DNA of 64,000 bases from an uncultured Clostridia bacterium. Its GTDB lineage: Bacteria; Bacillota; Clostridia; Christensenellales; UBA1242. This document shows, piece after piece, positions 5,676-64,000 of the stretch. Position 1 is the first letter of the stretch. Every line of letters begins with the position of its first letter. The position numbers and the translations under genes are program-made. The notes beneath the pieces were generated by a model. The model made no database searches. It saw only the letters and a list, made by a program, of their open reading frames with translations, and was not told the DNA's origin. Location: assembly GCA_934747805.1 (NCBI GenBank), contig CAKVHC010000002.1, positions 80,694-144,693 of the forward strand, read 5' to 3'.

Positions 5676-5703
5676 TTGCAAACTTTTTTTGTTATGTTAT
5701 AAT
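5676..5703 (+). promoter_or_regulatory. Promoter of truA placed for a leaderless transcript
   Basis: TTGCAA (5676-5681), 16 nt, TGtTATAAT (-10 at 5698-5703), 5 nt, ATG at 5709. No usable SD. Confidence 0.6.
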
Positions 5704-5708
5704 AAGGT

Positions 5709-6443
5709 ATGAGATATTTACTACAGTTGGCCTACAAAGGCACAAATTTTAGCGGTTATCAACGTCAACCAGACAAACGCACCGTTCAGGGTGTGCTGGA
5801 AGATGCGATTAATAAGGTTTTTGGTGAAGAAATAGTCAGTTTTGCTTCTGGCAGAACGGATGCAGGCGTGCACGCTCTGGGACAAATGGTGCATTTCGAT
5901 AGCGACAAGTTAATCGATTTTTCCAGTCTTAAATATTCGCTCAATTCCCTTTTGCCGGACGATGTTAGGGTGGTAAAGATTATTGACGGCGGTCAATTGC
6001 ATGCTCGCTATTCCGCCAAGCATAAACGTTATGGCTACACCTTTTATGTGGACGATTGCGAACGTGTCATGCTCGTCGACCGTGCGTATTTTGTCTATGG
6101 TGACTTGAACGTGCGTTTGATGAGGCGTGCGTGTAGGCTTTTCAAGGGCGAGCATGATTTCAAGTCCTTTCAGGCCACAGGCAGCACGGCAAAAACGACC
6201 GTGCGCACAATCTACGATTGCCGAATTGTGTATGACCGAATGAATGACACCTATCGCATCGAGGTGGAAGGCAATGGCTTTCTATATAAAATGGTGCGTT
6301 TTATCGCAGGTAGCCTTATCAAAGTGGGCAAAGGCAAACTCTCACTTGAACAACTGAAAGACGCTCTTGACGGCGGAGACCTGCCAAAAAACATTGTCCT
6401 GCCATCCCATGCACTCACTCTTTTAAACGTAAAATACGACTAA
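5709..6443 (+). CDS. truA: tRNA pseudouridine(38-40) synthase TruA
   Basis: MRYLLQLAYKGTNFSGYQRQP...GRTDAGVHALGQ catalytic Asp motif; 244 aa. Confidence 0.93.
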   Translation: MRYLLQLAYKGTNFSGYQRQPDKRTVQGVLEDAINKVFGEEIVSFASGRTDAGVHALGQMVHFDSDKLIDFSSLKYSLNSLLPDDVRVVKIIDGGQLHARYSAKHKRYGYTFYVDDCERVMLVDRAYFVYGDLNVRLMRRACRLFKGEHDFKSFQATGSTAKTTVRTIYDCRIVYDRMNDTYRIEVEGNGFLYKMVRFIAGSLIKVGKGKLSLEQLKDALDGGDLPKNIVLPSHALTLLNVKYD

Positions 6444-6468
6444 CACGGCAACTCTCGCCGTGTTTTTT
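6444..6468 (+). terminator. Intrinsic terminator after truA
   Basis: cacggc-aactctc-gccgtg followed by TTTTTT. Confidence 0.8.
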
Positions 6469-6486
6469 GTTAAACTGAAATGCATT

Positions 6487-6957
6487 AATGACGGATAAAA
6501 CGACAAATTGCTCCAAAATAAACAATTTGGTCAGATTTCGATACTTATTGGGTAATTGATGAGAAAATAAACAATGGTTATCCAATGTTGAAAAAAAATT
6601 ATTCAAGTCGCCAAAGTAACAGGCTTTTAAGGAAAAGCTAGTGCATATCACCCATACCTTGTTAAAACGCACCAAGACTTATTGGGTGTAGTTGGCAGAG
6701 TGCTGGCAGACGGATATTTGCGAGACTGCAACCTTAGCGGAAGCATAATCGGCGTGCTTAACACCAAAGCGACCAATGAGTGCAGCGGCGTAGTGGGTAA
6801 GTAAGAAATAAATGGTGCGATTGACTGCACAACTACCTACACCGAACTTAAATATGCCAAGATTGGTGGCACTACTGAATCACCAACTTATACATACTAT
6901 CTGTACGATTGGACATACATCACAACCACTTTGTACAACAAAAAGGTGCAGGCGTAA
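6487..6957 (+). pseudogene. Decayed fragment of a surface-protein gene, paralogous in motif content to the N-terminal domain of the 3,239-aa protein
   Basis: No intact ORF, but three plus-strand frames give characteristic pieces broken by stops: ...TNCSKINNLV..., ...INNGYPMLKKN..., SAYHPYLVKTHQDLLGVVGRVLADGYLRDCNLSGSIIGVLNTKATNECSGVVGK*, GAIDCTTTYTELKYAKIGGTTESP.... Compare EPYLIQSASDL, IGGIVGLSGGSDVSDCYSRGSI and VNDGLPV in the giant ORF. Confidence 0.5.
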
Positions 6958-7083
6958 ATATCGTTTTCCATTGTGTGCGGTCAGCGTTTTCAAAGGCTAA
7001 GATGCGACAATTAAACGTGTGAAAACTATAATATCGTAGCGCATAAAAAATGCAAAATTGCGACACATTTTCAAAAAATACGC

Positions 7084-7112
7084 TTGACACACGGACGGAT
7101 TTATTATATAAT
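7084..7112 (+). promoter_or_regulatory. Consensus sigma-70 promoter of rplM-rpsI
   Basis: TTGACA (7084-7089), 17 nt, TATAAT (7107-7112). Leaves a 5' leader of about 75 nt before the GGGAG SD. Confidence 0.8.
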
Positions 7113-9548: not shown

Positions 9549-9577
9549 TTTATTTTTTCTTTTAGATATGCTATAAT
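9549..9577 (+). promoter_or_regulatory. Extended -10 promoter placed for a leaderless transcript of the TM2 gene
   Basis: TGcTATAAT (-10 at 9572-9577), 6 nt, ATG at 9584. Weak -35 TTTATT at 17-nt spacing. No SD. Confidence 0.5.
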
Positions 9578-9583
9578 CTACGT

Positions 9584-10060
9584 ATGAAACAGAAACTGAC
9601 AAAGCGTTGCCCAAGATGCAACACCGAATTACCCATTGGCGTGAGTGTGTGCTATGACTGTGGTCTTAATTTTGACAAATTTAAAAATGCGACTAATGCC
9701 GAAGCAAAAAAAGCAATGCGAGCTGGTGAAAAAGACAGAGTTTTGAACTCACGCATTTTGCCTAGTGATGTTAGCAAAACAAAACTTTTGCTTGCATGCA
9801 TATTCGGTGGGTTGTTTGGTGCACACGAGTTTATGGTGGGCAGATGGTTGAAAGGACTCATTTACACACTATTGACAGTCGTATCTCTAAGTTTGAGTGC
9901 GTTAGAAGTGTTTGGCGGACTAGAATCTCTCGCAATGCAATACGCAACCGAAATCATCTACACAGCATGGGCAATCGTATTTTTGATTTGGTTGGACGAT
10001 TTGATAAGGATCATTTTCAATAGATACAAAGTTCCAGTTTCATTACCATATAAGGATTAA
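9584..10060 (+). CDS. Zinc-ribbon plus TM2-domain membrane protein
   Basis: CPRCNTEL...CYDCG zinc ribbon, then LLACIFGGLFGAHEFMVGRWLKGLIYTLL, typical of the TM2 domain. Confidence 0.65.
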   Translation: MKQKLTKRCPRCNTELPIGVSVCYDCGLNFDKFKNATNAEAKKAMRAGEKDRVLNSRILPSDVSKTKLLLACIFGGLFGAHEFMVGRWLKGLIYTLLTVVSLSLSALEVFGGLESLAMQYATEIIYTAWAIVFLIWLDDLIRIIFNRYKVPVSLPYKD

Positions 10061-12057: not shown

Positions 12058-12672
12058 TTAATCATCTATTTGATTTTTATAATTTTTCAAACAACTATTA
12101 ATTGTGTCCCATCCGTAGCCTTTATATTGTAAATGGCGAATAAGTTTTTCAATATTTTTTTGCTCAACTGTGTGACATGAAAAATATTTATCTACAATCT
12201 TTTTCGCTGAGTCAATGTCTTCAATTTCTGCTACACTTTCGTTAATGATTTCTGGGCTTATGCCTGCCTCAAAAAGTTTATTTTTGATATACGATTTTGA
12301 CTTGGATTTTTGCATGGAATTTGTGTACATTTTGGCATACGTTTCATCGCTGATAAGATTGTACGAAGACATCTTTTCGACTAGCTTATTTACTGTGTCT
12401 GATGAATATCCTTTTTTATATAAATATGTCCTTAATTGTTTGGCTGTTTTCAGCTGTCTTGACACAAAGTTCATTGCATTCGCACACGCAATCAACCACT
12501 CACTTTTTTCAACTGCATTTATGAACACTTGTGCATCAATCTCTGAGTTAAGTGTAATGCCAAATTCTAGCATAGCGTCAGCATGCAATTCAAATATTTC
12601 GCCCGTTTCACAAGTCGCTTTGAATATGTTGGGCTGTGTCTTTTTTGTGTTTTTTAACGAAATGATTTTCAT
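12058..12672 (-). CDS. recX: Recombination regulator RecX
   Basis: Repeated three-helix units (LRTYLYKKGYSSDTVNKLVEKM..., IKNKLFEAGISPEIINESV..., LIRHLQYKGYGWDTINSCL). Start moved to MKIISLKN (12672) because the track's longer ORF would overlap cmk and its promoter. Confidence 0.8.
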   Translation of the reverse strand: MKIISLKNTKKTQPNIFKATCETGEIFELHADAMLEFGITLNSEIDAQVFINAVEKSEWLIACANAMNFVSRQLKTAKQLRTYLYKKGYSSDTVNKLVEKMSSYNLISDETYAKMYTNSMQKSKSKSYIKNKLFEAGISPEIINESVAEIEDIDSAKKIVDKYFSCHTVEQKNIEKLIRHLQYKGYGWDTINSCLKNYKNQIDD

Positions 12673-12679
12673 ACACAAT

Positions 12680-12708
12680 ATTTTATCAAATGATTTACTT
12701 TTTGTCGA
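12680..12708 (-). promoter_or_regulatory. recX promoter placed for a leaderless transcript
   Basis: Minus strand: TCGACA, 17 nt, TAAAAT, 7 nt (attgtgt), ATG at 12672. No SD. Confidence 0.45.
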
Positions 12709-12757
12709 GCAAAGTGCTATACTTGAGATGAAGATTTTATAAAGGGGTTGATATAAA

Positions 12758-13420
12758 ATGATTACAATAACGATTGACGGGCCGTCAGGTTCAGGCAAGT
12801 CTACAGTTGCCGACGTGTTGGCAAAAAAGTTGGGGATAAACCATTTAAATACGGGTGCTTTGTATCGTGCAGTGACTTACGGTTGTCTGCAGGCGGGTAT
12901 CCGTCCAGATGAGAATGACAAGATATCCGATTACATAGCCAATTGTGGATTGAACGTAAAATTCGTGGGTGACGAACAAAGGGTGTATCTAGGTGAACAA
13001 GACGTTACGCCTTATCTTCGCCAAAACGAAATCAGTGTTCAATCACCATTGTATTCCGTTAGTCCAAGTGTTAGATATGGCTTGACTGATTTCTCACGCA
13101 AGCTTAGCAGCGAAATGAACATAATTTTAGACGGCAGAGATAGTGGCAGTTTTGTCCTGCCAAATGCGGATTACAAGTTCTATCTTGATGCCAGCGTGAC
13201 TGAGCGTGCACGTCGTCGCCAGCTAGAACTCAGAGCCAAAGGCGAAGACGTCAATCTCGACACACTCGTCCAGCAGCTGAGCGAACGTGACGAATTTGAC
13301 AAGCATAAGAAGGTAGCACCGCTCGTTGTTCCAAAGAATGCAATCATCATTGACAACACGCACTTAAACCTTGAGCAAACGGCAGAAGAGATGTTAAAAT
13401 ATATCAAAATGCCAAAATAA
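12758..13420 (+). CDS. cmk: Cytidylate kinase
   Basis: ITIDGPSGSGKSTVADVLAKKLGINHLNTGALYRA; 220 aa. Confidence 0.93.
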   Translation: MITITIDGPSGSGKSTVADVLAKKLGINHLNTGALYRAVTYGCLQAGIRPDENDKISDYIANCGLNVKFVGDEQRVYLGEQDVTPYLRQNEISVQSPLYSVSPSVRYGLTDFSRKLSSEMNIILDGRDSGSFVLPNADYKFYLDASVTERARRRQLELRAKGEDVNLDTLVQQLSERDEFDKHKKVAPLVVPKNAIIIDNTHLNLEQTAEEMLKYIKMPK

Positions 13421-14854: not shown

Positions 14855-14883
14855 TTGACAAGCGAATAGAAAGAGAATAAGAT
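14855..14883 (+). promoter_or_regulatory. lgt promoter placed for a leaderless transcript
   Basis: TTGACA (14855-14860), 17 nt, TAAGAT (14878-14883), 6 nt, ATG at 14890. No SD. Confidence 0.55.
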
Positions 14884-14889
14884 TTAGTT

Positions 14890-15669
14890 ATGAAAAATTA
14901 TTTCACCATAGGTTCGTTAGAGATTCATTATTATGGTGTGCTTATGGCATCGGCAATGCTAATTGGCATTTTTTTGGCTTATGGCATCAGCAATCGAAAG
15001 GACATCAAGAGAGAGTCCATCTTCGACCTTGCTCTCATTGTGCTGCCACTTGCCGTGTTGGGTGCACGCACATACTATTGCATCTTCAGTGATTATCATT
15101 ACACATTTGCAGAGTTTTGGCAGATAAACAAAGGCGGTCTTGCCATTTATGGCGGAGTGATAGGCGGTTTTATCGGCGTCGTAATTTTCAGCCTTATCAA
15201 GAAAAAAGATATTCGTTCGGTGTGTGACGTCATCGCTCCGTCACTCATTCTAGGGCAGGCAATCGGTCGTTGGGGCAATTTTATCAACCAAGAGGCCTAC
15301 GGCTATGTAATCAATAACCCAAAATGGCAATTTTTCCCTGCTGGCGTGGAAATCGATGGCGTTTGGCATTTGGCGACTTTCTTCTATGAGTCGATGTGGA
15401 ACTTGGTTGTCTTTGCAATAGTACTTACAATATTTTTCAAAACTAAATCAAAGGGCACGACAACGGCATGGTATCTCATACTTTATGGGCTGGGTCGTAC
15501 CGTCATTGAAGGACTTCGCACCGACAGTCTATACATTGGCAACACAGGCATCCGTGTGTCACAGGCCTTGAGCGTTGTGCTCATTTTGTGCGGAATTGGT
15601 ATGCTTATCTACAATCTTGTCAAAAATAAGAAGACTAAGGTTGTAGAAAGTGACTCGAACAAAGTATAA
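14890..15669 (+). CDS. lgt: Prolipoprotein diacylglyceryl transferase
   Basis: IHYYGVLMASAMLIG..., GQAIGRWGNFINQEAYG, GRTVIEGLRTDSLYIG; 259 aa. Confidence 0.92.
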   Translation: MKNYFTIGSLEIHYYGVLMASAMLIGIFLAYGISNRKDIKRESIFDLALIVLPLAVLGARTYYCIFSDYHYTFAEFWQINKGGLAIYGGVIGGFIGVVIFSLIKKKDIRSVCDVIAPSLILGQAIGRWGNFINQEAYGYVINNPKWQFFPAGVEIDGVWHLATFFYESMWNLVVFAIVLTIFFKTKSKGTTTAWYLILYGLGRTVIEGLRTDSLYIGNTGIRVSQALSVVLILCGIGMLIYNLVKNKKTKVVESDSNKV

Positions 15670-16960: not shown

Positions 16961-19900
16961 ATGGTTAGTTTGAGAAAAAGAAAACTGTCGAGAATTTCAA
17001 TGTTTTTAGCCTTGAGTTTCTGCTTGGCTTTTGTTTCCGCCTTTTCACTTGTGCCTACCACTCAGGCATCTAGTTTCGATGTATGGGACGGCTCAACAGT
17101 GTCTAGCAGTCTGTCAGGCTCAGGTGCGGAAAGTGAGCCTTATTTGATTCAGTCAGCTTCAGATTTGGCGTATTTCAATGCCAATCCTCAATCTGATGCG
17201 TATTACAAACTAACCACTGACATTGATTGCAATGGAATGTCTTGGACGCCAGTCAATGTTGGGTATTTTGACGGCGGCAATCACACCGTCAAGGGTTTTG
17301 AGCCAGGAGATTATATAGAAGACTCATCAAACAGCGTATACACAGGATTTTTCACGAGTGTTAAATCTTTGTCAAATCTAAAGATAGTCTATAGCACTCC
17401 TGTCACAAGGGACATTGGCTCAGTTTATTCAAACTATCGCTTTGGTGGTGCGACAACCAATGCATATTCAGGGGCTCAGGCTGTTATAGATAACGTGCAT
17501 GTCACCATAGACAATTTAGACATAACCAGTTCGGTCGATGGAAATTTCCTTATAGGTGGCATAATTGCTGAAGCAACAGAACATGCGGCCAACGTCACCA
17601 ATTGCTCAGTATATATGAACGCTAACATCACTCCAAGTGGCAGTATAAATTATATCGGCGGTATTGTTGGACTTTCAGGTGGTTCCGACGTGAGCGATTG
17701 CTATTCTAGAGGAAGCATCACTGTTAATAGCGGTTCACATGTTAGTGGCATTGTTAACAACAATACAACTTCCACAGTAAAACGCTGCTACACAACAATG
17801 AGCATCAATGCCGACACCTCCTACACCAAGCAGGGCTCGGAGATATATGAAGAAAAACCCGATGACTGTCGAGGCCACAGTTTTTATAAATGTCTCGGAC
17901 ATTGTCAAGGACATGCAGAAGTAGTTGGCTCTTGTCATGGTGGCATGCATTATATATGCGATCAACCTGAACTAAATGAAGATGAAACTGTGGCAATGTG
18001 TAAAGATGTCGTGGTTAAATTGTTTTGGCGTTGTGAAGGATGTTACTATAGAGAAGAAGCGAAGGAGGGGGCCAAAGAAGGTGATTTCAAAGATGATATA
18101 GAGCCGCATAACTACGTAAATAATGACGGGACAGAATCTTCTGTTACATGCTCGTCCACAAGTGCAGAATGCTGTAAAATTGGGGTAATTTTACATGGCG
18201 CGGGCGGCAAAGGTACAATAACTGAATTAAAAGCCGATGGCTGTAATAATTGGGGAATTATTAGCGAAGTAAAAAATGTTCCATGTGAATGGAAAGACAA
18301 AGGAAAAGTATTCTGTGATGCAGATATTGCTAAGAACAATTATAAATTTGTTTGTCCGAACTGCGGCTCTAAAATAGCGTCAGTTTATGAAGAAGAAGAT
18401 TGTATAGATAAAACTTGCACTGGCTGGAAGACAGAAACAGTTACGAGATATCACAGCAAAAGTGAGATGAGCAGTTGTACAAATGCTAGCTATCATAGTC
18501 CAGGTTACATTAAAGACGGCAACGATTATACGGCAGCTTTGATCGATGGTTGTGACAATCAAGAACTTGTAGATTATGGTGATTGTGGTAATCAACACTT
18601 GTATTTAGATCCAACAGGCCAGTACGAAATAGTTACTGTTAAGACTGGCTACGTGAATGCAATCTCTGATGTGAGTGAAAACAGAGTTTTCTTCTGTAGT
18701 GATAGCTCGTTGGTGGCAAGTAATACACTTAATGCGCCTGCCAAATATGGCCGCACATTGTCACAAATGAAAGTACGATCGACTTACGATAGTTGGCTTG
18801 ACTTTGATGACTATTGGATAATCGATTCCAGCGTAAACGACGGGCTGCCTGTTCAAAAATCGACGGTAAGTTTGGGCGTTAACACTGCACCAATACTGCT
18901 TGATTTAAACGATAATGAAATTACTGCAAAGGACTCAAAGAGTTGGAGCGAAGTGCGAACCACAGGCGACGGCTATTATCTGAGCCTAGACATTGGTGCA
19001 CCTGAAAACGAAACGGTTTCGTTAAACGTAACGTACGACGACGGAAAATATGAGTTTATCGGCTGGGCAAGAAAGAGTGACAATGGCTATTCTATCCTGT
19101 CTGACAGCACTCCATATTCGTTCGAAATGACCAAAGCTAACGAAGGTGGTTGGTATGCACTATTTAGAGAAGTTAAATATGACTTGACCACCAGCCTATG
19201 TGTTATCAAGGCTGACGGCACAGAAATAACTGATGATTCAGTCTTAAAAGAGTATGTTGACCTAAATGTCACTGTTAATGGCTCGACATATGCTGGGGCA
19301 GAGATTGGCGTACTAGACAAACTCAATTTTAGCTACCAGTACAAAAATCCAAACGTAGATTTCTTCACATTCGACCATTGGAGAGTTAACGGCACTAAGG
19401 TGACGGCGGATATTATCAGCACATTGCTGGACAATGGCGAAATAAGTGACGAAGACCATTATCTCTACACCGAGTTTTACGACAATATAATTGCTATCAG
19501 CAAGGATTCTGGTGTGCTCGACATTGTGGCTGTGTTCAGACCTGTAGAGTATAATTTCGTCGTTCACAACATGGATTCAACCAAAGGAACACTTTCCATA
19601 AGCGGTGATTACAGCGGCGAAAGTGAGATCACTAATGGTGGAACGTTGATAATCAAAAACGTTGACGTGTATTCCACAATTCCTGCCATTAGGGCGTATT
19701 CCGAAACAGCTGCGATTTCAGGTTGGAGCTACACTGACGTAGACGGCAACGAAGTTCAGTTGTTTACTTTTGATCAAATATTCAAAGAAAAAATCTCATC
19801 ACAAACAACACTTGTTGAGCAGATTGTTGACGGCAAAATCGCAGTAGAAAGCCATACCCTCAATTACTATGTTTCGTTCACCAATTTGTACACAATCAAA

Positions 19901-22900
19901 GTCGTAACCGAAGTGGATTTCGGCAGTTACACTGACTATGATCAAGATTGTTTGGCGTTTGTTTATAACTCAGACCACACGCAGCGTGAAACAGAAATGA
20001 TTGTTTTTGACGGACAAGAAATCACTTTCAACTATTACGACATGTCAGGCAGAGGTTATGATTTCTTAGGGTTCTATGACAAGAGCGTGGACAACGGCTT
20101 TGCGACATATTCAAAACTGCCAGCCACTGGTAAAATCACTGACGACACAACGGTTTACGGCGTGTATATGCGTAAGGTGGTCGATTTCAGCATCAAGGTG
20201 CTTGACCAAAGCTCAGACACGATTTGCGATTTCGCAGATTACAACAAAGAAATCTTAGACATTGGCGTTAATGCCTACAACAGTAGCTTTATAACTGGTT
20301 ATGAAATTGTCAACCAAGGTGCGAGCGATGAAAAATGGATTTTCACACTTAAGGATAACCAAATTCAGACCACAAGTTCATACCAAAGATACAATGACTA
20401 CGTGAACGTTGCTCTTTCGTTGCAAAACGAAATGAACAAAATATACAAGGTGTTGGGAATGAAGATTCTCAGCCCTGATGCAACTGTTGAGCAAGTGATT
20501 GCCGCATCGTATACAGCGAGTGCCAGCGGTTCAAACACTGCCAATATGATTATGAATGTGAACAACCTTGAAGGTAAGTGCATTTACATGGTTTACACCA
20601 AACTGGATATGTCGGTGCAACTCGCCGTTGAAACGATTGATCCAGGCAAAACGGCAGTCGACGAGCCTAGCGAAAGCTTAGTGATGCACAACACTGAATT
20701 GGTGGTGGGCAACCGTGTGCAAGACATTAAATACGGTGACACAATCTCATTCAAGAGCAAGGCAAAAACAGGCTTCAAATTCTATGGCTGGAAATTGCCA
20801 GACGGAACAGTTATTCAGCATAGCAATATTTCAATCGACGTCAATGGCAGGGTTACAACACTAGCAGACGACGAAGAATACAATATTTTGACATTGTCTG
20901 CATTCGATTCAACGCTCAAGGGCATCTACACAGCAATGTACTCAAAAATTGCTTACAAAATCGTCGTAGACAACCTTGCAGGCGACAGCATCTTTACTAT
21001 TGCAGGCAGTTCGTCCAAGAATGTTATTGAGCAGTTCTATATTAACCAGATTGCATCAATCACGGCAAATATCGATCCTAGCAAAAACTATTTCGGATTA
21101 AGCTCACAGCCTAACAATGTGGCAGAATACTTCAACTCAGTTCAACTTACAGAAACACTCATTGCTTTGGCTGATGAAAACAACACAATCAAACTGTACC
21201 AAGTGTACGAAGATAATTACTTGCTGACAATCAGCATAACAGATCAGGTTCACGGCAAATTTACTTACAAAGTAAATGGCGAAACACGAAACTATTCAGG
21301 TGCGGTGTATGTGACAAAAAATAGTCAAATCGAGATCAATGTTTCAGTTGACGCACACTATCATTTCACAATAACTGGTGTGAGCGAACAGAACGTTAGC
21401 GAAACTGGTGCAGAATTCACAATGTCTGCAAACACTACAGTGAATATCGACGTGGCTATCGACACTCACAAACTCGAATTTGAGTTTGAAGACGGCTACG
21501 AAGATGGTGCAACGCTCACAGGCGCAGGCACGTACAATTATGGTCAAACTGTTAAAATTGGCGCTATTATTAACAAAGGATTTGATTTCGTAAAGTGGAC
21601 GATTGACAACGGCGCTGGATCTGAAATCAAGTTGGTCAGCGAATTTGATTACACCATAACTGCTGACACAAAATGCAAAATTATTTTGCTGCACCGCTAC
21701 ACCATTACAACGCAGGTTAATGACCCACAGGGCGCAGAGATCACTGGCTCATTCGAACTCAACGAAAAGGACAGCGCACAAATCACGGTGACATTGCGTG
21801 CAGGATATAGCCTACAAGGTTGGCAAATCGATGGACAAGACACTGACTTGACTGGCACAACTATCACTGTAATTGGTGAGAAAACATGCACATATACGGC
21901 AGTAATTTCTCAAGACAAATATTACATTAACGTAGACGCAATCGCCGCAGTTTATGGTGAATCTGGCTACACTATCAGTGCTCCACAAAACAATGAATAT
22001 TACACCTACAACGAGCAAGTGGAAATCAAACTCATTACTCCAAAATTCCTACTCAGACTCAACAAGTTGAGTGCAAACAACGTAGTGCTGGCAATAAACA
22101 GTGCGGTGACTAACGAAAGTCAGTTGACAGTCAGTTTAACTGCTGGCAACAAGGAATATTTTGCTGGGGACACAACTGTTATTCGCATTGATTACACTCG
22201 CATTTATGCATTAAATATCATCAAATCTGAAACAGAAGCAGAAGATAGCGTGCTGAATGAAATGTATTATATCAGCAAGCAAACTACTGGTGACACGACT
22301 ACATATCTCATATTGGACGGCACAGTAGTAAATATTGATACAAAAGACAATTCAAAATACATTTTCAGCAAATATGAAATCAATGTAGACGGCAATTTTG
22401 AGACGCTCACGACTGAACGTGAAACTCTGTTCACCGTCGCTGCCGACAGCGAAATCAGAGTAGTGTATCTCGGCAAAGCCTATGATATCGACTTTGTCTA
22501 TCACGTTTTGGACGAAAATGGCGCAGAAATGACCGATTTCAATAAAAAATGGATTTCTAACCGCACTTATTCATTCAAAAATGCAGACGGCGAAGAAACA
22601 CTCGAATTCAGATATGGCAGTGAAATCACTATCACGCCAGCAATTTTACCATATGGTTTGGCGGTCGATCACTTCACATTTGACGGCAACGATTCAGCGT
22701 CTAGCATCACAGTTTTGATGAACAAAGAAGGCAACATTACTGTTGACGTGTACTATATTCGTGTGGCAATCAGCGTGTCAGTTTACAATAGTGAAAATGG
22801 CACAATAACGAAGATTGCAGATAGCGATATAGACAACGGCAACGCAATCTACACTGTAACAGGCGAAGGCCAGTATTATATCGGCGACAGTGTAGTAATT

Positions 22901-27622: not shown

Positions 27623-27624
27623 AA

Positions 27625-27645
27625 AACACAGCAATGTGTTTTTTA
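27625..27645 (+). terminator. Intrinsic terminator after trxB
   Basis: aacaca-gcaa-tgtgtt followed by TTTT. Confidence 0.7.
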
Positions 27646-27646
27646 T

Positions 27647-27675
27647 TTGTCTATTGGCATGGATTGTGTTATAAT
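27647..27675 (+). promoter_or_regulatory. ung promoter placed for a leaderless transcript
   Basis: TTGTCT (27647-27652), 17 nt, TGtTATAAT (-10 at 27670-27675), 6 nt, ATG at 27682. No SD. Confidence 0.6.
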
Positions 27676-27681
27676 GCAAGT

Positions 27682-28353
27682 ATGAGTAATTATGTTTTGA
27701 ATGAAGATTGGCAAAAAGTTTTGACGCCAGCTTTTACGCAGGAATTTAAACACAAACTGTTTGGCTTTGTAAACGAGCAGTATGCTTCGCACCGCTGTTT
27801 TCCTGCCAAAGAAAACGTCTTCCATGCACTCAATTTGACTCCAGTGGACAAAGTGAAGGTTGTCATAATCGGACAAGATCCATATCACACACCTTTGCAA
27901 GCGGACGGCTTGGCTTTCTCGTGTGCAGATGGCAAGGCTCAACCATCTTTGCAAAACATTTTTAAAGAACTATCCAACGACTTAGGTATTCCGGCACCCA
28001 CCAAAACCACACTTTACGGTTGGGCAGAGCAAGGCGTTCTGCTGTTAAACAGCGTTCTCACTGTGCAAATGGGTATGGCAGGTTCTCACGCAGGACACGG
28101 CTGGGAGGAAGTAACCAAAACCATTATTAAATATTTAGCAAGCCTTGAGCGTCCAATAGTTTTCATACTTTGGGGCGGATATGCTCGAAAGTACGCTAGC
28201 TTGATTGACAAAAATAAGCATCTGGTGATCGAATCGGCACACCCAAGTCCACTTTCTGCATACAACGGCTTCTTTGGTAGCAAACCATTCAGCCGTTGCA
28301 ACGATTATCTGGTGAAATATGGTTTGTCACCAATAAAATGGGAGAATAATTAG
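27682..28353 (+). CDS. ung: Uracil-DNA glycosylase (family 1)
   Basis: GQDPYHTPLQADGLAFS, LLLNSVLTV, ESAHPSPLSA. Start set at MSNYVLNEDW. The track's upstream extension overlaps trxB and the promoter. Confidence 0.93.
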   Translation: MSNYVLNEDWQKVLTPAFTQEFKHKLFGFVNEQYASHRCFPAKENVFHALNLTPVDKVKVVIIGQDPYHTPLQADGLAFSCADGKAQPSLQNIFKELSNDLGIPAPTKTTLYGWAEQGVLLLNSVLTVQMGMAGSHAGHGWEEVTKTIIKYLASLERPIVFILWGGYARKYASLIDKNKHLVIESAHPSPLSAYNGFFGSKPFSRCNDYLVKYGLSPIKWENN

Positions 28354-28361
28354 GAGAAAAT

Positions 28362-29971: not shown

Positions 29972-29996
29972 CATAATTTTCATAGAAAGATATAAT
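29968..29996 (+). promoter_or_regulatory. Promoter upstream of mcsA-mcsB-clpC giving a 5' UTR of about 150 nt
   Basis: TTAACA (29968-29973, overlapping the hflX stop), 17 nt, TATAAT (29991-29996), 5 nt, then ATG GAA ATA CTA TAT TAA (30002-30019). Confidence 0.5.
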
Positions 29997-34054: not shown

Positions 34055-34056
34055 AA

Positions 34057-36233: not shown

Positions 36234-36243
36234 AAATCACTCC

Positions 36244-37512: not shown

Positions 37513-38137
37513 ACTTGTCCTTATAATATTTACAATATTTTTGCATTTTACACTCTTCACATTTTGGTTTTCTGCTAATGCAGTGATATCTGCCAAAGAG
37601 TATTAAACGCAAATGAAGTTTGTCCAAACAATTTTTGTCGAAGGCTTGATAGATTTTTTTCTCCACTTCCAAAGGTGAATCTTTTTCCTCGCTGATGCCA
37701 AGTCGGTCACACACACGATGAACGTGCGTGTCCACAGCCACGACAGGAAACCCAAAGCATTCGTTCAAAACAACATTTGCTGTCTTACGTCCCACACCGC
37801 TCAGTGTTTGCAAAACGTCACGGTCAGTTGGCATCTCGCCATTGTATTTTTCCACAATTTCTCGAGAACATTCTTTTATCGCTTTTGCTTTTGAATTGTA
37901 GAATCCACAAGAATGAATAATATCCTTCAACTCATCTTCGTTAAGCTCAGCCATTTTGTCTGGAGTGGGTGCTAGAGCAAAGAGTCTCGGCGTCACCATA
38001 TTAACACGCTTGTCCGTACATTGCGCTGACAATATTGTCGCAATCAAAAGTTGAAACGGTGTTTCATAATTCAGTTCACAACGAGCGACAGGAAACATTT
38101 CTTCCAAATACGCTAACAACTCTTTTTGTTTTTCCAT
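37499..38137 (-). CDS. nth: Endonuclease III
   Basis: ELNYETPFQLLIATILSAQCTDKRVN, HhH-GPD LSGVGRKTANVVL, 4Fe-4S CxxxxxxCxxCxxxxxC at the C-terminus. Start set at MEKQKELL (38137) from promoter geometry. Confidence 0.92.
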   Translation of the reverse strand: MEKQKELLAYLEEMFPVARCELNYETPFQLLIATILSAQCTDKRVNMVTPRLFALAPTPDKMAELNEDELKDIIHSCGFYNSKAKAIKECSREIVEKYNGEMPTDRDVLQTLSGVGRKTANVVLNECFGFPVVAVDTHVHRVCDRLGISEEKDSPLEVEKKIYQAFDKNCLDKLHLRLILFGRYHCISRKPKCEECKMQKYCKYYKDKYEHR

Positions 38138-38143
38138 AAGAGT

Positions 38144-38172
38144 ATTATAACACATTAGATACGCATTTTCAA
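38144..38172 (-). promoter_or_regulatory. Consensus promoter of nth(-obg-yhbY) placed for a leaderless transcript
   Basis: Minus strand: TTGAAA (38172-38167), 17 nt, TGtTATAAT (-10 at 38149-38144), 6 nt (actctt), ATG at 38137. No SD. Confidence 0.65.
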
Positions 38173-38757: not shown

Positions 38758-38825
38758 GTTATACCTCTCACAAAAAGCGTTTGTTCATAATACATAATAT
38801 ATAGAAAGGTAAAAAATGGTGAATA

Positions 38826-40798: not shown

Positions 40799-40861
40799 AT
40801 AATAACTGTTTTGCGTGTTTTAAGGTTTGACAACACGGCTATAATGTTTTAAAATAATAGT

Positions 40862-42157
40862 ATGAACATCTTAGCAATAATTAATAAGAAACGTTGTGGC
40901 AAAGCTTTGACCACTGAAGAGATAGAATTTGTAATCAAGGCATACACAAGAGGCAAAATACCTGATTACCAGATGAGTTCGCTTCTTATGGCAATATGTA
41001 CTAAAGGAATGAACTACGAAGAAACGCTTGCCATGACGCTTGCTATGAAAAATAGTGGCAAGGTTTACACCTTTGACAAATCACGCAATTTTATCCTTGA
41101 CAAACATAGCACAGGTGGAGTGGGCGATTCGACCACATTTATTGTGATGAGCACACTCGCCAGTCTTGGCTACAAAATGGTGAAAATGAGCGGTCGTGGT
41201 CTCGGTCACACAGGCGGCACTTTGGACAAACTTGAAGTATTTCCAAAAGTGAAGCATAACTATTCGATTGACCAAGTGGAAGAGTTTTTAGACAAGAACA
41301 ACGCTGTCATTATCGGCGCACAGGCTGTTGCCCCAGCGGATAAGAAAATTTATTTGCTTCGTGACGTCAGTTCAACAGTAGAAAGCATTCCGTTGATTTG
41401 TGCTAGCATTCTGTCCAAGAAATTATCTTGTGGCGCACATGGAATAGTGTTTGATATCACCTGTGGTGACGGTGCCTTTATGCACAATTTGAAAGATGCT
41501 CAGACGCTGGCACATTTGATGCGTAAGATTACGCAGCATGAAAAGGTGCGTGCCTCATTCGTGATTACGGATATGGATTCGCCGCTTAGTCGTGGAATTG
41601 GCAGAGAGTACGAAATCGCAGATGTTGTTCGTGTTTTGAACGGCGAGCGTTGTGCTCTACGTGAAGTTTCACTAAAATTGATAGTGGAAGCAATGCGTCT
41701 TCAGAAACCAGAACTTAACGAAAAATATGCCTACATCCAAGCAAGCCAAGCAATCGATAACGGACTAGCCAAGCAAAACTTCGTTGACATACTTCGAGCA
41801 CAAGGGGCTAATCTAGATAACATAGATGACTATCAAACTGTGCCAAAGACAAAGTTTGAAACGAAAATTTATGCTTCCACTTCAGGCAGAGTAAGGCGTG
41901 TGTCCGCACGTGCTCTAGGCGATGCCGTTCGCATCTTGGGTGGCGGTCGATTGGTGGAAACCGATACTATTACGCCAAATGTGGGCATGGAAATTAATTG
42001 CCGCATTGGCGACAAGGTTAAGAAAGGCGATTGCCTAGCAATAGTTCACTACGAAGACAAGAAAAAGTTTAAGCAAGTGGAATCGCAAATCAAGAATGCA
42101 TTTCAAATTGGTTGTTTCGCCTTAAAACCTAAGCTTATTATTCAGGAAATAAAATGA
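40862..42157 (+). CDS. pdp: Pyrimidine-nucleoside (thymidine) phosphorylase
   Basis: KIPDYQMSSLLMAICTKGMNYEE, DKHSTGGVGD, SGRGLGHTGGTLDKLE; 431 aa. Confidence 0.93.
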   Translation: MNILAIINKKRCGKALTTEEIEFVIKAYTRGKIPDYQMSSLLMAICTKGMNYEETLAMTLAMKNSGKVYTFDKSRNFILDKHSTGGVGDSTTFIVMSTLASLGYKMVKMSGRGLGHTGGTLDKLEVFPKVKHNYSIDQVEEFLDKNNAVIIGAQAVAPADKKIYLLRDVSSTVESIPLICASILSKKLSCGAHGIVFDITCGDGAFMHNLKDAQTLAHLMRKITQHEKVRASFVITDMDSPLSRGIGREYEIADVVRVLNGERCALREVSLKLIVEAMRLQKPELNEKYAYIQASQAIDNGLAKQNFVDILRAQGANLDNIDDYQTVPKTKFETKIYASTSGRVRRVSARALGDAVRILGGGRLVETDTITPNVGMEINCRIGDKVKKGDCLAIVHYEDKKKFKQVESQIKNAFQIGCFALKPKLIIQEIK

Positions 42158-45148: not shown

Positions 45149-45895
45149 TTATTTTTCTCCCAAAAATGTTTTAAGTCGGTAACAAAAATTTTGTTTGTTT
45201 TCCAGATAGGCAAAATGTCCGTAATCAACAACATGGCATTCGGCATTTGGAATGTGTTTATGAAAATATGAGCACATATACATAGGTGTTTCTTTATCGA
45301 GTTTGCCCCAATAAATAAGCGTTGGACACGTGACGCATTTTATTAAGTTTTTCAAGTTTAGATTTACAACGTTTTTAAATGTGGTTCGGTCAATGTCTGC
45401 AAGTGCCATGTAGTCGGTCGAGCCAATTGCATTGTTGAAATGTAAGTCACGATTGTCTAGCCATTTTTTCGTCTGATTTAAGTCCCTTATTTTTTTATAT
45501 CTCGGTTTTATGCCAGCCCCAGAACAGATAACCAGTTTTTTTAGTTTAATCCGCTTATTTAAAATTAGTGCCACTCGGCAACCGAAACTGTGGCACACGA
45601 CAATAGGGTCATTTATGTTAAGCAATTGCAAAATGTTGCACACAATGTTTACGTAGTCAAACATGGACAGAGGTTGTAGTGACGAGCATTCTTTGTAAGG
45701 CGGAAAACTAATTTTTAGTGTAGAAAATTTCTTTACAAAAGGGTCGCACACATCGAACGACCTTTTGTTGCCGCCCCAACCATGCAAAAATAACACGCAG
45801 TCATTCCCACGTTTCTCGTAGTCGTAGTCAATTATAAAACTCTTATAAATATATTTCACATATTCATATATGCGTGTGCGTGTGTTTTCGCCCAA
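45149..45895 (-). CDS. Alpha/beta-fold hydrolase
   Basis: VLFLHGWGGNKRSF, nucleophile elbow VCHSFGCRV, C-terminal HVVDYGHFAY. TTG start per track. Its stop abuts the murF ATG. Confidence 0.7.
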   Translation of the reverse strand: MGENTRTRIYEYVKYIYKSFIIDYDYEKRGNDCVLFLHGWGGNKRSFDVCDPFVKKFSTLKISFPPYKECSSLQPLSMFDYVNIVCNILQLLNINDPIVVCHSFGCRVALILNKRIKLKKLVICSGAGIKPRYKKIRDLNQTKKWLDNRDLHFNNAIGSTDYMALADIDRTTFKNVVNLNLKNLIKCVTCPTLIYWGKLDKETPMYMCSYFHKHIPNAECHVVDYGHFAYLENKQNFCYRLKTFLGEK

Positions 45896-46039
45896 TGTTC
45901 ATTGCATTACAACTTTTGCTTCGTCAACACAAAAGAGTTCGGATAAATTTAGTGATTTAAGTAGTGTTCTACGATTTACAACTTATATTTAGCCTCAAAA
46001 GTTTGTATCAGCTAGCGAATACGTGACATATAACCTTAT

Positions 46040-47092
46040 ATGAAAAAAATTGGAATCGTATTTGGCGGCGAGTCGGTTGAACACGACGTATCTGTTATCA
46101 CCGCCTTGCAATGCTATCAAATGATAAAATCTGATTTTATAGTCAAGTTAATCTATCTTACACGAGATAATGAGTTTTATTTCGTGCCTAACAATGTTCG
46201 CCCCAGCGACTTTGTTCGCCTGCCAAAACATGCCAAACGTGTCAAGAACATGCATTTTGGCGTAGACACAATAGTCAACTGCTGTCACGGTGGGATAGGC
46301 GAAGACGGTCAGCTTTCGGCAATGTTCTCCATGTTGAAAATCAACTACACCAACGCCGACTGTATTCCGAGCATGATCGCAATGGATAAGATGCTAACAA
46401 AACTTGCACTAAAGTCCACCAAAATTAAAACCTTGCCAGCTAAGACATTTTTCTCCCTAACTGATAGGAGTGAATTAAAAAAGTTTTCCTATCCGGTGAT
46501 TGTCAAGCCGAGAAGTCTAGGCAGTAGCATAGGTGTTGTTAGGTGTGATAATGAAACTGAACTATTTCAAGCCATAGAATCAGACCTGATGTACGACCGA
46601 GCTTGCATTGTGGAAAGATGCATTGACCCGCTAATCGAGTACAACTGTGCTATCTATAAACGTGGCGACGACTTGATTGTCAGCGAAATAGAGCAACCTA
46701 TCAAGCACGACTTGACCTTAAGTTTTGCAGATAAATATTTATCAAACTCAGAAAAAGGAATGAAAAGTTCCTCTCGCATTTTGCCTGCCGAAATCGACGA
46801 CGCTCTCCGTGAAAAGATTCACATTTGGACGCTCACAGCATACAAAGTTCTTGACCTAAAAGGCGTCGTGAGAGTGGATTATCTCTTTGACCCAACGACA
46901 AAATCTCTTTATCTCAACGAAATCAACACAATTCCTGGCTCTCTTGCATTTTATTTGTTTGAGCCGTTGGGAATCAGCTATGTGGAACTGGTAAAAGACC
47001 TAATCTACGACTGCCAAAATTCGCACATAACGGACAACAAAATTACCAGATTTGACTCGCAAATACTTGATATTGCTTTACATAAAAATTGA
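46040..47092 (+). CDS. ddl: D-alanine--D-alanine ligase
   Basis: KKIGIVFGGESVEHDVSVITA, GGIGEDGQL, ATP-grasp VRVDYLFD...LYLNEINTIPGS; 350 aa. Confidence 0.92.
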   Translation: MKKIGIVFGGESVEHDVSVITALQCYQMIKSDFIVKLIYLTRDNEFYFVPNNVRPSDFVRLPKHAKRVKNMHFGVDTIVNCCHGGIGEDGQLSAMFSMLKINYTNADCIPSMIAMDKMLTKLALKSTKIKTLPAKTFFSLTDRSELKKFSYPVIVKPRSLGSSIGVVRCDNETELFQAIESDLMYDRACIVERCIDPLIEYNCAIYKRGDDLIVSEIEQPIKHDLTLSFADKYLSNSEKGMKSSSRILPAEIDDALREKIHIWTLTAYKVLDLKGVVRVDYLFDPTTKSLYLNEINTIPGSLAFYLFEPLGISYVELVKDLIYDCQNSHITDNKITRFDSQILDIALHKN

Positions 47093-56947: not shown

Positions 56948-56976
56948 TTGCCGAGAACAAATCTTTGTGATATATT
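56948..56976 (+). promoter_or_regulatory. der promoter placed for a leaderless transcript
   Basis: TTGCCG (56948-56953), 17 nt, TGaTATATT (-10 at 56971-56976), 6 nt, ATG at 56983. No SD. Confidence 0.5.
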
Positions 56977-56982
56977 TAAGCT

Positions 56983-58302
56983 ATGAGAAAACCTGTTGTA
57001 GCCATAGTAGGCACTCCAAATGTGGGCAAGAGCACATTTTTCAATAAAATTGCTGGCAGACGAATCAGCATTGTAGACGACCAACCAGGCGTGACACGTG
57101 ACCGTATTTACGCAGATGCTGACTGGAACGGCTACGCTTTTTCCATTGTCGATACAGGCGGTTTGGATTTTAGCAAAGACGACGAAATGTATCACAATAT
57201 TTTGAATCAAGCACAGATTGCCATTGATTTGGCGGACGTGATTGTGTTTTTTGTGGACGGCAAAAAGGGCTTGACCCACGCAGATATGGAAGTGGCGAAT
57301 ATGCTCCGCAAGTGCAAAGCGCCAAAGATTGTGGCTGTTAACAAACTGGATAACAACGAGATTGAAAAGACGTACGAGTTTTATGAACTCCAACTCGGCG
57401 ATCCAATGCCATTGTCGGCTTCGCATGGCAAGGGAATAGGTGACTTGCTCGACGCTATTACACGCCATTTGGAGCAGATTTCACCTGAGGAATTCGCTGA
57501 CACGCTCAAGATTGCCATTGTGGGCAAGCCAAACGCTGGCAAGAGTAGTTTGACGAATAGGCTCATAGGCGAAGACCGAATGGTTGTCAGCAATGTGGCA
57601 GGCACAACACGTGATGCCATCGACATTCCTTTCAAATATAACGGCAAAAACTATACACTTATTGACACCGCCGGCTTGCGTAAAAAGGGTAAAATCGCTC
57701 CAGATAGCATAGAGCGATATAGTGCATTAAGGTCTATTGATGCAGTAGAACGCTGTGACATTGCACTTATGGTAATTGATGCCACCGAAGGCATCACTGA
57801 GCAAGATTCCAAAGTGGCTGGACTTATTCACGACGAAGGCAAACCTAGTGTTATTGTGGTGAACAAGTGGGATAAGGTCGACAAGACCAAAATGTCTACT
57901 GAGAAATTTAAAAAACTGATTGAGACCGAACTGCCATTTATGAAATATTACGTGCCTGTTTTCATCTCTTGCGAGAGCGGACAACGCATAGGAAAGGTGA
58001 TGGAAATGGCAGAAATGGTCTATGCTAACGCCAGTCGTGAGATTACTATGGGCGTTTTCAACTCCATTTTGCAGAATGCGACGGCGGTCAATGAACCACC
58101 TATTCACAATGGCCGTAAACTCAAAGTGCTTTATGGCAGACAGTCAGGCAAGAATCCTCCGACCTTTACAATCTTCTGCAATCGTGCGGAGCTTATGGAT
58201 TTTGCTTATTCAAGATATTTGGAAAACAGCATTAGAAACGCTTTTGATTTCAAAGGCACTCCTATCAAACTGATATTCAAGAACAAAGGAGAAAAAGAAT
58301 AA
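56983..58302 (+). CDS. der: Ribosome-associated GTPase Der (EngA)
   Basis: Two G domains (IVGTPNVGKST; IVGKPNAGKSS) plus a KH-like C-terminus; 439 aa. Confidence 0.95.
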   Translation: MRKPVVAIVGTPNVGKSTFFNKIAGRRISIVDDQPGVTRDRIYADADWNGYAFSIVDTGGLDFSKDDEMYHNILNQAQIAIDLADVIVFFVDGKKGLTHADMEVANMLRKCKAPKIVAVNKLDNNEIEKTYEFYELQLGDPMPLSASHGKGIGDLLDAITRHLEQISPEEFADTLKIAIVGKPNAGKSSLTNRLIGEDRMVVSNVAGTTRDAIDIPFKYNGKNYTLIDTAGLRKKGKIAPDSIERYSALRSIDAVERCDIALMVIDATEGITEQDSKVAGLIHDEGKPSVIVVNKWDKVDKTKMSTEKFKKLIETELPFMKYYVPVFISCESGQRIGKVMEMAEMVYANASREITMGVFNSILQNATAVNEPPIHNGRKLKVLYGRQSGKNPPTFTIFCNRAELMDFAYSRYLENSIRNAFDFKGTPIKLIFKNKGEKE

Positions 58303-62390: not shown

Positions 62391-62416
62391 TTAGCAAAAA
62401 ATTTATTTTAGAATAT

Positions 62417-62441
62417 AAAAACACCGAAAGGTGTTTTTTTT
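62417..62441 (+). terminator. Intrinsic terminator whose T-run ends at the alr ATG
   Basis: aaaacacc-gaaa-ggtgtttt followed by Ts up to 62441. ATG at 62442. Confidence 0.8.
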
Positions 62442-63401
62442 ATGTTTAATAAACTTGTAATCCATTTATCCAAAATAAGAAAAAATGTATTGGCAGTGAA
62501 ATCCGTTACGAACAAAAAAATCATATCAGTTGTCAAAGCAAACGCCTATGGACACAATGCAATAAGAGTTGCCAACTCATTGCTAGACATAGTAGATATG
62601 TTTGCTGTGGCAAATATGCGTGAAGCAAAATTGCTCGCAACTAACGGCATAAAAAAAGATATTTTAGTGCTATCTAAAACCACCGAATATGATACTAGTT
62701 TTTCAAACATTATCTACATGGTTGATGACAAAAATTACATTCCCAATCATGCTCGTGTGCATATTGCAGTCAACAGCGGTATGAACCGATATGGTGTTGA
62801 CTCACGCAAAGAATTTTTAACTCTTTGCAAAAAATTAAAACGCAACAAAAACTCTATTGAAGGGGTGTTTAGTCATTTCTATTCGGTGAACAAAGAAAAC
62901 TGCAATCGTCAGATTAATCGATTCAAAAATATCGTTGGCGACATAGACTTGCCAGTTCACTTTTCCAGCAGTCATTCGCTCGACATAGATTTGCCACAAA
63001 CATATGTGCGGCTTGGCATTTGTCAGTATTATGCTAGCAAAGAGATACATACTCAAGTGGTTGACTTGCACAGTGTGAAAAAGGGTGAACACATTGGTTA
63101 TGGGCAAATGCGTGCAAAAGATGATTGCGTGGTTGCTGTGTTACCAATAGGTTATGCTGACGGACTTGATTTGCGTCTGGGCAACAATTGGCAGGTGACG
63201 ATTAACGGCAGAGATTATCAGATTGTAGGCAAAATATGTATGGATTGTTGTTTTGCTGTTGTTGACAGAAAAGTCAAATTAGGAGACAAGGTCATATTTT
63301 TCGATGGTGACATAACGAAAATTGCGAGAGCAGTTGGCTCAACCGAGTACGAACAAATGTGTAGACTTTATGGCGATAGATATGACATAGTTTTTGATTA
63401 A
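62442..63401 (+). CDS. alr: Alanine racemase (short form, 319 aa)
   Basis: PLP-Lys motif VVKANAYGHNA; HIAVNSGMNRYG; LPIGYADGL; GKICMDCC. Confidence 0.88.
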   Translation: MFNKLVIHLSKIRKNVLAVKSVTNKKIISVVKANAYGHNAIRVANSLLDIVDMFAVANMREAKLLATNGIKKDILVLSKTTEYDTSFSNIIYMVDDKNYIPNHARVHIAVNSGMNRYGVDSRKEFLTLCKKLKRNKNSIEGVFSHFYSVNKENCNRQINRFKNIVGDIDLPVHFSSSHSLDIDLPQTYVRLGICQYYASKEIHTQVVDLHSVKKGEHIGYGQMRAKDDCVVAVLPIGYADGLDLRLGNNWQVTINGRDYQIVGKICMDCCFAVVDRKVKLGDKVIFFDGDITKIARAVGSTEYEQMCRLYGDRYDIVFD

Positions 63402-63490
63402 GATTTGATTTTGAATAAATGAGCACTTGTTATAGAGCTCCGGATGATAGGTTTATGGTTTGTCGAACATATATTCGTCACACATTCTGC

Positions 63491-63519
63491 TTGATTTACA
63501 ACGAATATTTTGATATAAT
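63491..63519 (+). promoter_or_regulatory. rsmD promoter placed for a leaderless transcript
   Basis: TTGATT (63491-63496), 17 nt, TGaTATAAT (-10 at 63514-63519), 6 nt, ATG at 63526. No SD. Confidence 0.6.
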
Positions 63520-63525
63520 GCAATC

Positions 63526-64000
63526 ATGAGAATTGTGGCAGGAAAATTTAGGGGTACACATTTAGCAGATTTTGACCTTGACACCACCAAGCCGACACTT
63601 GATAGAGTGCGTGTTAGCATTGGCAATATTTTGCAGTGCAACTTTGGCGGTGCGATCGCCGTCGACCTATTTTCAGGCAGCGGTTGGTTCGGTCTAGAGG
63701 CTCTTTCACGTGGTGCATCCAAGGTGTATTGTGTGGACAGCAATAAACAAGCCGTTAAAATAATTCGTTCCAACTTTACTCGTTTAAAGCAGAACGAAAG
63801 TCAAATAGTGAATAGCGATTATATGGACTTTTTGTGCACTGCCAAAAATAGCGGTTTGAAATTTGACATTGTTTTCCTTGACCCACCTTACGCTACCGAT
63901 TACGCACAAAAAGCCGTCGACTTTTTGATTGCACATCAGATGATCAACGATGGCGGAGTAATCATGCGTGAGAGCGATTCGTCCACCTCGCCGCTTATTG
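63526..64000 (+). CDS. rsmD: 16S rRNA (guanine966-N2)-methyltransferase RsmD (partial, runs off window end)
   Basis: My translation: MRIVAGKFRGTHL...KPTLDRVRVSIGNIL...AVDLFSGSGWFGLEALSRGASKVYCVD...DIVFLDPPY. Not in the ORF track because there is no stop inside the window. Confidence 0.88.
   Translation, partial: MRIVAGKFRGTHLADFDLDTTKPTLDRVRVSIGNILQCNFGGAIAVDLFSGSGWFGLEALSRGASKVYCVDSNKQAVKIIRSNFTRLKQNESQIVNSDYMDFLCTAKNSGLKFDIVFLDPPYATDYAQKAVDFLIAHQMINDGGVIMRESDSSTSPLI

Follow-up and report, generated by a model that had tools for sequence, protein, structure and literature searches.

A promoter-abutting start-codon geometry points to a sizeable class of probable leaderless genes in a reduced-genome lineage of gut Clostridia

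Introduction

The classical leaderless messages, the cI mRNA made from the phage λ PRM promoter and the mRNAs of Streptomyces resistance genes, start on the A of the AUG, lack a Shine-Dalgarno (SD) sequence and have their 5′-terminal AUG recognised directly. Each such case is a single regulatory or resistance gene. We analyse here a stretch of DNA of 64,000 nucleotides (nt), hereafter the window, from an uncultured human-gut Clostridia bacterium, in which several genes, among them truA, ung, nth, der and rsmD, have a promoter placed directly against an ATG that has no SD. The same arrangement recurs along the whole genome, where it marks a class of housekeeping enzymes whose mRNAs are probably leaderless.

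The closest described systems come from surveys of gene starts. Zheng et al. 2011 (PMC3160421) reported TA-led genes from 56 of 209 Firmicutes genomes, where they make up 4.2% of genes on average (range 2.4-16.6). They occur mainly in Lactobacillales and Mycoplasma (the groups Lactococcus-Streptococcus, Oenococcus-Leuconostoc and Mycoplasma) and carry a TGnTAtAAT signal; the word Clostridia does not occur in that survey. As with the TA-led genes, those analysed here have a TANNNT or TAtAAT box, often with a TG peak, whose first T lies about 12 bp upstream of the start, and they stand alongside dominant SD use, their share of 6.5% falling within the surveyed range. They differ in lineage, the trait being traced here through a gut family with genomes of about 1 Mb and through 42 families of its order. 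In the GeneMarkS-2 classification of Lomsadze et al. 2018 (PMC6028130), group C (Mycobacterium, Streptomyces, Deinococcus) has a Pribnow box 6-8 nt from the starts of first genes in operons and 25-50% leaderless operons, and includes only 36 of 1064 Firmicutes. The genome studied here shares with group C the Pribnow box at leaderless-type starts and the use of an SD at the same distance by other genes, but its leaderless-type units amount to about 9-18%, SD use prevails, and its promoters follow an AT-rich consensus with TG and -35 elements. Within the class Clostridia, differential RNA sequencing of Clostridioides difficile (bioRxiv 10.1101/2020.08.10.244764) placed 6 of 1646 mapped start sites in the leaderless category. 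Both organisms have an aGGAGg SD consensus and mostly short 5′ untranslated regions (UTRs), whereas the prediction here is of 43 leaderless genes among the 232 with an assigned promoter. Our literature search found no paper pairing "leaderless" with the order name Christensenellales and no such report for Clostridia. What we describe is a comparatively supported example of a known architecture, of the TA-led or group C type, in a lineage for which we found no description and at the highest density in our sample of the phylum.

Results

Two kinds of gene start in one genome

The genome is a metagenome-assembled genome (MAG) of 966,584 bp in 17 contigs with 40% GC, and the window occupies positions 80694-144693 of its contig C2. 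Genes were called with a simple caller of our own, a hexamer log-odds model followed by greedy overlap resolution; the result was 843 genes with a coding density of 88%. The 3′ end of the 16S rRNA is the canonical GATCACCTCCTTT, with a canonical anti-SD. Counting as SD genes those that form a duplex with this tail of -5.5 kcal/mol or lower, 626 of the 843 (74%) belong to the SD class, and 55 (6.5%; 43 strong and 12 medium) are leaderless-type, with a promoter abutting an SD-less ATG. These counts bear out the coexistence of two initiation modes that the original prediction had proposed from the window. The remaining 162 genes (19%) carry neither signal. Among crude operon heads 45 of 509 (9%) are leaderless-type, and of the 232 genes with a strong promoter (defined below) within 200 nt upstream, 43 (18.5%) have it 5-7 nt from the start codon. 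Neither value reaches the 25-50% of operons that characterises group C; this is an SD-dominant genome with a leaderless minority. In 110 of the 232 promoter-assigned genes the promoter lies 16-40 nt away, giving very short leaders, and such leadered genes fit promoter, SD and ATG into a stretch of about 30-50 nt, as at window positions 34057-34114.

The spacing is fixed and specific to gene starts

We define N as the number of nucleotides between the end of the -10 hexamer and the start codon, and call a promoter strong when its -10 matches at least five of six positions and its -35 matches at least five of six, or at least four of six with a TG. Before candidate ATGs in the first part of each open reading frame (ORF), strong promoters accumulate at N=6 (29) and N=7 (13), with only 0-3 at each offset from N=0-5 and N=8-15; a separate broad hump of 5-12 per offset at N=16-30 corresponds to the short-leader SD genes. 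GTG and TTG candidates give no offset peak, their strong promoters at N=6-7 (3 and 0, respectively) being at background level, and no N=6 peak is seen at internal ATGs. Read from the promoter, ATG is the commonest triplet 6 nt past any strong promoter genome-wide (37 of 536). The 5′-most ATG, which is chosen blind to the motif, gives the same picture: upstream of the 643 genes with an ATG as 5′-most start, TANNNT occurs 45 times at N=6 compared to 6-19 times at N=1-5 and 7-10, and hexamers matching TATAAT at five or more positions occur 31 times at N=6 compared to 3-7 at neighbouring offsets. In-frame TAA and TAG stops inflate the TANNNT counts of 5′-most starts at N=0, 3, 6 and so on; this artefact was excluded as the cause of the peak, non-stop hexamers still numbering 23 at N=6 versus 3-10. 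In the strict test, with TATAAT matched at five or more positions at exactly N=6, the 31 occurrences compare with 6.5 ± 2.4 in dinucleotide shuffles (z 10.2).

Could such pairs of hexamer and ATG arise by chance co-occurrence in a genome of 40% GC, and be inflated by a choice of starts fitted to the motif? The classifier does pick the start partly by motif, with a false-call floor of 0.8%. The peak is already there at the motif-blind starts, ATG heads the triplets at N=6 after strong promoters, the shuffles are exceeded with a z of 10, and the geometry recurs in orthologues (see below). We give chance a very low probability and, in our view, these tests reject it. The geometry in which a promoter abuts the ATG is real, statistically robust and specific to gene starts.

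The elements have the character of promoters

At N=6-7, -10 hexamers are accompanied by a -35 of at least 4/6 in 68% of cases, by one of at least 5/6 in 49% and by a TG in 43%. The corresponding values are 34%, 18% and 17% at the other offsets between 0 and 40, and 19%, 5% and 7% for the same hexamers taken over the whole genome. A consensus promoter scan of window positions 27000-46500 (19.5 kb) placed the sites of nth, pdp and ung among its five best matches. The elements behave as promoters rather than as AT-rich filler.

A looser count gave a different result. The original prediction had proposed counting any TANNNT at N=5-7 and expected an excess over shuffled controls; before the 5′-most ATGs there are 68, compared to 62.7 ± 7.4 in dinucleotide shuffles (z 0.7), and the expected excess was not found. 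SD-led genes deplete TANNNT at these positions and AT-rich shuffles create it; the class is visible only through strict motifs or offset profiles. Taken together with the AT-richness of the upstream regions, the loose count would also suit words that are not promoters at all but parts of AT-rich, unstructured initiation regions on longer mRNAs, working by SD-independent, standby or S1-type initiation; 10 of the 55 leaderless-type genes follow a co-directional gene at a distance of under 50 nt, where read-through is possible. An initiation region of this kind has no need of an exact N=6, of a TTGACA-like hexamer 16-18 nt upstream or of a TG at -15/-14, yet these are enriched, and a genome of the same order with equal GC content (G024) has no peak. 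We consider this explanation very improbable.

The start codon as the probable transcription start

Within the 55 leaderless-type genes the spacing is N=6 in 39, N=7 in 14 and N=5 in 2, and the base preceding the ATG is T in 50, compared to 396 of the 626 SD genes (p 1e-5). Since start-site selection favours a pyrimidine at -1 and a purine at +1, this T fits a transcription start on the A of the ATG. An SD could not fit into the 6-nt spacer: duplex energies with the 16S tail at the called ATGs are all above -6.5 kcal/mol and mostly above -3, and for most of these genes no alternative SD-led start was found within 150 nt on either side. A start a few bases away from the A, leaving a stub leader of 1-5 nt or falling inside the codon with translation beginning downstream, would agree with the non-uniform spacing (N=5 in truA, for example) and with the known wobble of 1-2 nt in start-site selection, and part of the set would then not be leaderless in the strict sense. 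Such a stub is too short for an SD, and a 5′ UTR of up to 5 nt is by convention counted as leaderless; a downstream SD-led alternative exists in few candidates, protein profiles have their first match within residues 1-8 of the proposed products, and the T(-1)A(+1) context favours the A. We therefore regard displaced starts as unlikely, and a start on the A itself as the better reading.

The protein profiles place the starts close to the predicted ATGs. The first aligned residue is 1 in rsmD, deoB, tatD, spoIIGA and the 5′-3′ exonuclease, 1-3 in recF, 2 in mnmE, 3 in ddl, 4 in lgt, 6 in pdp and 4-8 in uvrC. Several starts of the ORF track had been called wrong in the original prediction, and here the orthologues agree with it. 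The N-termini of orthologues match the ATGs of ung (27682 and not 27571, in the plus-strand ORF 27571-28353; 37 codons shorter) and of nth (38137 on the minus strand and not 38155, in ORF 37499-38155; 6 codons shorter). The ORF-track start of recX (12798, minus-strand ORF 12058-12798) is unsupported because an ORF of that length would run into the divergent gene at 12758; the leaderless-type start is 42 codons shorter.

Sites in the window

Leaderless-type genes are denser in the window (8 of 57) than in the genome (55 of 843), its members being truA, the TM2 gene, recX, ung, nth, der, rsmD and pdp. The sites are listed below, together with the two weaker cases, lgt and ddl.

truA, 5676..5711, plus strand: TTGCAA-16-TGtTATAAT-5-ATG, ATG at 5709; class strong; Pfam PseudoU_synth_1
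TM2-domain gene, 9569..9586, plus strand: TGcTATAAT-6-ATG, ATG at 9584; poor -35 (TTTATT); class medium; Pfam TM2
recX, 12670..12708, minus strand: TCGACA-17-TGaTAAAAT-7-ATG, A of the ATG at 12672; Pfam RecX three-helix domains
lgt, 14855..14892, plus strand: TTGACA-17-TAAGAT-6-ATG, ATG at 14890; matched by the LGT profile
ung, 27647..27684, plus strand: TTGTCT-17-TGtTATAAT-6-ATG, ATG at 27682; promoter scan 10/12 with TG
nth, 38135..38172, minus strand: TTGAAA-17-TGtTATAAT-6-ATG, A of the ATG at 38137; promoter scan 11/12 with TG
pdp (pyrimidine-nucleoside phosphorylase), 40827..40864, plus strand: TTGACA-17-TAAAAT-6-ATG, ATG at 40862; promoter scan 11/12
ddl, 46029..46042, plus strand: TATAAC-5-ATG, ATG at 46040; no -35, no TG and no SD; class "none"
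der (engA), 56948..56985, plus strand: TTGCCG-17-TGaTATATT-6-ATG, ATG at 56983
rsmD, 63491..63528, plus strand: TTGATT-17-TGaTATAAT-6-ATG, ATG at 63526; position 1 of Cons_hypoth95 is residue 1

Apart from pdp, which the first reading of the window had missed and whose product has Glycos_transf_3 and PYNP_C domains, these sites had all been predicted. Their hexamers, spacers and ATGs were present as described in all nine, and Pfam supported the nine gene identities (truA, TM2, recX, lgt, ung, nth, ddl, der and rsmD). A -10 box ends about 5-8 nt from the start at eight of the nine, and also at pdp. The exception is ddl, where TATAAC lacks the invariant final T of the -10 and leaves a doubtful case, although its ATG is probably correct, to judge by the Ddl N-terminal profile. 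With lgt the -35 is a perfect TTGACA at 17 nt and the -10 (TAAGAT) matches only 4/6, so that stricter criteria put this weaker case in class "none". At der the promoter occupies the whole 35-nt gap downstream of the preceding gene.

An Rfam scan of the window returned one tRNA only, so no leader RNA families account for the upstream regions. Elsewhere in the window, positions 16961-26680 on the plus strand hold a single ORF of 3239 amino acids that has a good SD and scores higher for coding than any other in the window, presumably a giant surface protein.

Relatives and orthologues

The same pipeline was run on samples of about 400 kb from four other genomes, with the following results.

G012, same family, other genus, 35% GC: 18 strong promoters at N=6 (background 0-3); 8.2% of genes leaderless-type
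G034, same family, 38% GC: 5 strong promoters at N=6; 4.9% leaderless-type
G024, same order, other family, 37% GC: no strong promoters at N=6; 0.8% leaderless-type
G027, same order, 60% GC: no strong promoters at N=6, few promoters overall

G027 was set aside as a negative control for its 60% GC and its few consensus promoters, and G024 was used instead. In G012 the N=6 peak is sharper than in the studied genome. Among reciprocal best hits, the G012 orthologues are leaderless-type for 5 of 15 leaderless-type genes versus 5 of 98 SD genes, and those of G034 for 2 of 13 versus 2 of 116; pooled, 7 of 28 versus 7 of 214 (p 3e-4).

Individual loci can be followed further. Across the family the geometry is found at about 9 of 20 ung, 12 of 30 truA and 10 of 30 nth loci, at 36-54% protein identity and with upstream DNA that can no longer be aligned. 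TGnTATAAT-N6/7-ATG is present at ung in the genus of the studied genome and in about seven other genera, and truA is leaderless-type in the studied genome (G000), in G012 and in G034, and SD-led in G024. Many SD-led orthologues retain TGnTATAAT, only 15-25 nt from the ATG. The Der protein is 99% identical in a MAG of the same species (HGM11372) and 91% identical in a sister-species Clostridia MAG; in both, the -10 and its spacing are invariant, and the discriminator and the -35 drift. The der genes of Oscillospiraceae-type MAGs (about 51% identity) have a GGAGG SD.

Spread across the order and the phylum

As a measure of spread we asked what share of all TGNTATAAT-N(0-15)-ATG matches falls at N=6-7; the null value is 0.125.

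Studied genome: 0.475
Sister species of the same genus: 0.56
Family, 41 genomes: median 0.28, range 0.13-0.56
Other 116 genomes of the order: median 0.20
Family pools inside the order: 0.02 to 0.39

By this measure the trait appears common, to varying degree, to the whole family of genomes of about 1 Mb and to several other families of the order. Per Mb, TGNTATAAT-N6/7-ATG occurs 19.7 times in the studied genome, about 14 times in the family and 5.8 times among the remaining genomes of the order. A sample of 150 genomes from the phylum has a median density of 2.45 per Mb, a 90th percentile of 5.7 and a maximum of 10.4. The studied genome has 8 times this median and lies above every one of the 150. 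The suggestion that such a frequency is atypical of Bacillota therefore holds among these 150 genomes, with the qualification that 56 of 209 Firmicutes genomes, in Lactobacillales and Mycoplasma, were already known with 2.4-16.6% (PMC3160421).

Genomes of 0.8-1.4 Mb were found in 41 of 41 sampled members of the GTDB family, 38 of which are at least 90% complete, so the small size is real. Reduced genome size is thus family-wide in these gut Clostridia, and the density of the leaderless motif is highest in the same family. Across the order the share at N=6-7 falls with genome size (Spearman rho -0.39, p 1e-5; -0.34 without the family), both values being uncorrected for phylogeny or GC.

Kinds of genes

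The class includes many genes of DNA repair and replication (ung, nth, recX, recF, uvrC, lexA, holB, tatD, yraN, a RarA-type ATPase, the 5′-3′ exonuclease and a DEDD exonuclease) and of RNA modification and processing (truA, rsmD, mnmE, miaB, rlmD, dusB, two SpoU/TrmH-type methyltransferases, a TtcA-like enzyme, a CCA/PcnB-family enzyme and RNase R). Other members are der, whiA, spoIIGA and, in nucleoside salvage, pdp, deoB and deoD. Enzymes of nucleic-acid maintenance make up 23 of the 55 leaderless-type genes (tool-verified) and 3-6 of 30 random SD genes (some assigned by eye), so the bias towards them is only suggestive. Coding-bias scores are lower in leaderless-type than in SD genes (p 7e-5 here and 0.007 in G012), consistent with low expression of the class.

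Words resembling Cheo or SOS boxes (CGAAC-N4-GTTCG type) were seen near three leaderless-type genes. One, CGAACAAATGTTTG (genome C12:5570-5583), overlaps the -35 of lexA; another, CGAACATATATTCG (window 63464-63477), lies about 14 nt upstream of the -35 hexamer of rsmD; and at 38179-38215, just upstream of the nth promoter, an inverted or direct repeat with an 18-bp stem is made up of two imperfect copies, ACGAATATGTTTGT and ACGAACATATTTGT. Some of the repair genes in the class may be under LexA control.

Discussion

It is established in other organisms that ribosomes bind the 5′-terminal AUG of leaderless mRNAs directly. For the genome studied here we consider it likely, on the evidence of promoter sequence and spacing, that transcription starts on the ATG of about 55 genes from housekeeping-sigma promoters and yields leaderless mRNAs. 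The promoters would be of the sigma-70/SigA type, many with an extended -10 (TGnTATAAT), and their -10 hexamer would end 6 nt, sometimes 7 and rarely 5, before the ATG. RNA polymerase would then begin at this A, in most cases with the context T(-1)A(+1), and make an mRNA that has neither a 5′ UTR nor an SD, so that ribosome and initiator tRNA would be recruited directly by its terminal AUG. Apart from this the organism is a normal SD user; about 6.5% of its genes and about 9-18% of its transcription units would be leaderless. The preferred users appear to be housekeeping genes of low coding bias, in DNA repair and replication, tRNA and rRNA modification and nucleoside salvage, and over evolution individual genes appear to move back and forth between being leaderless and having a very short leader with an SD.

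Several results weigh against this picture or limit it. The loose TANNNT count was not significant, and all gene starts come from our own simple gene caller. The genes with neither signal leave the true leaderless share uncertain. All 55 leaderless-type starts are ATG by construction of the class, and in this genome alone the exclusive use of ATG reaches a binomial p of 0.09, a tendency only; furthermore, two orthologues of nth, L150 (in G038) and L166 (in G052), have TGgTATAAT-N6-GTG and TGcTATAAT-N6-GTG. If these GTGs are real starts, the leaderless geometry on GTG would be, to our knowledge, unusual outside Actinobacteria. In truA, with N=5, the usual start position would fall on the T of the ATG. 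Finally, the state is only partly conserved, and most orthologues of leaderless-type genes are SD-led in the other genera.

A wider reading would join these observations, and we put it forward tentatively, at somewhat less than even chances: in this family of gut Clostridia with reduced genomes (0.8-1.4 Mb), leaderless initiation may serve as a regular second channel of expression with three features. The channel would be preferred by low-abundance enzymes of nucleic-acid maintenance (repair and the SOS genes including lexA, tRNA and rRNA modification, nucleoside salvage); it would grow as genomes shrink; and genes would pass into or out of it through small indels by which an SD-bearing leader of 10-20 nt is lost or gained behind an otherwise fixed promoter.

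The mechanism is not new, and the case made here is one of sequence inference. For genome annotation it would mean that standard gene callers extend or misplace leaderless starts, which within the family would concern roughly 1 gene in 15. The wide variation in leaderless frequency between families of one order would offer a comparative handle on gain and loss. An SD-proficient lineage of Clostridia appears to retain a sizeable leaderless class, concentrated in repair and RNA-modification genes. If the wider reading is true, the family would be the most leaderless-rich lineage so far seen in the phylum, and a natural place to study why bacteria that use the SD retain leaderless genes.

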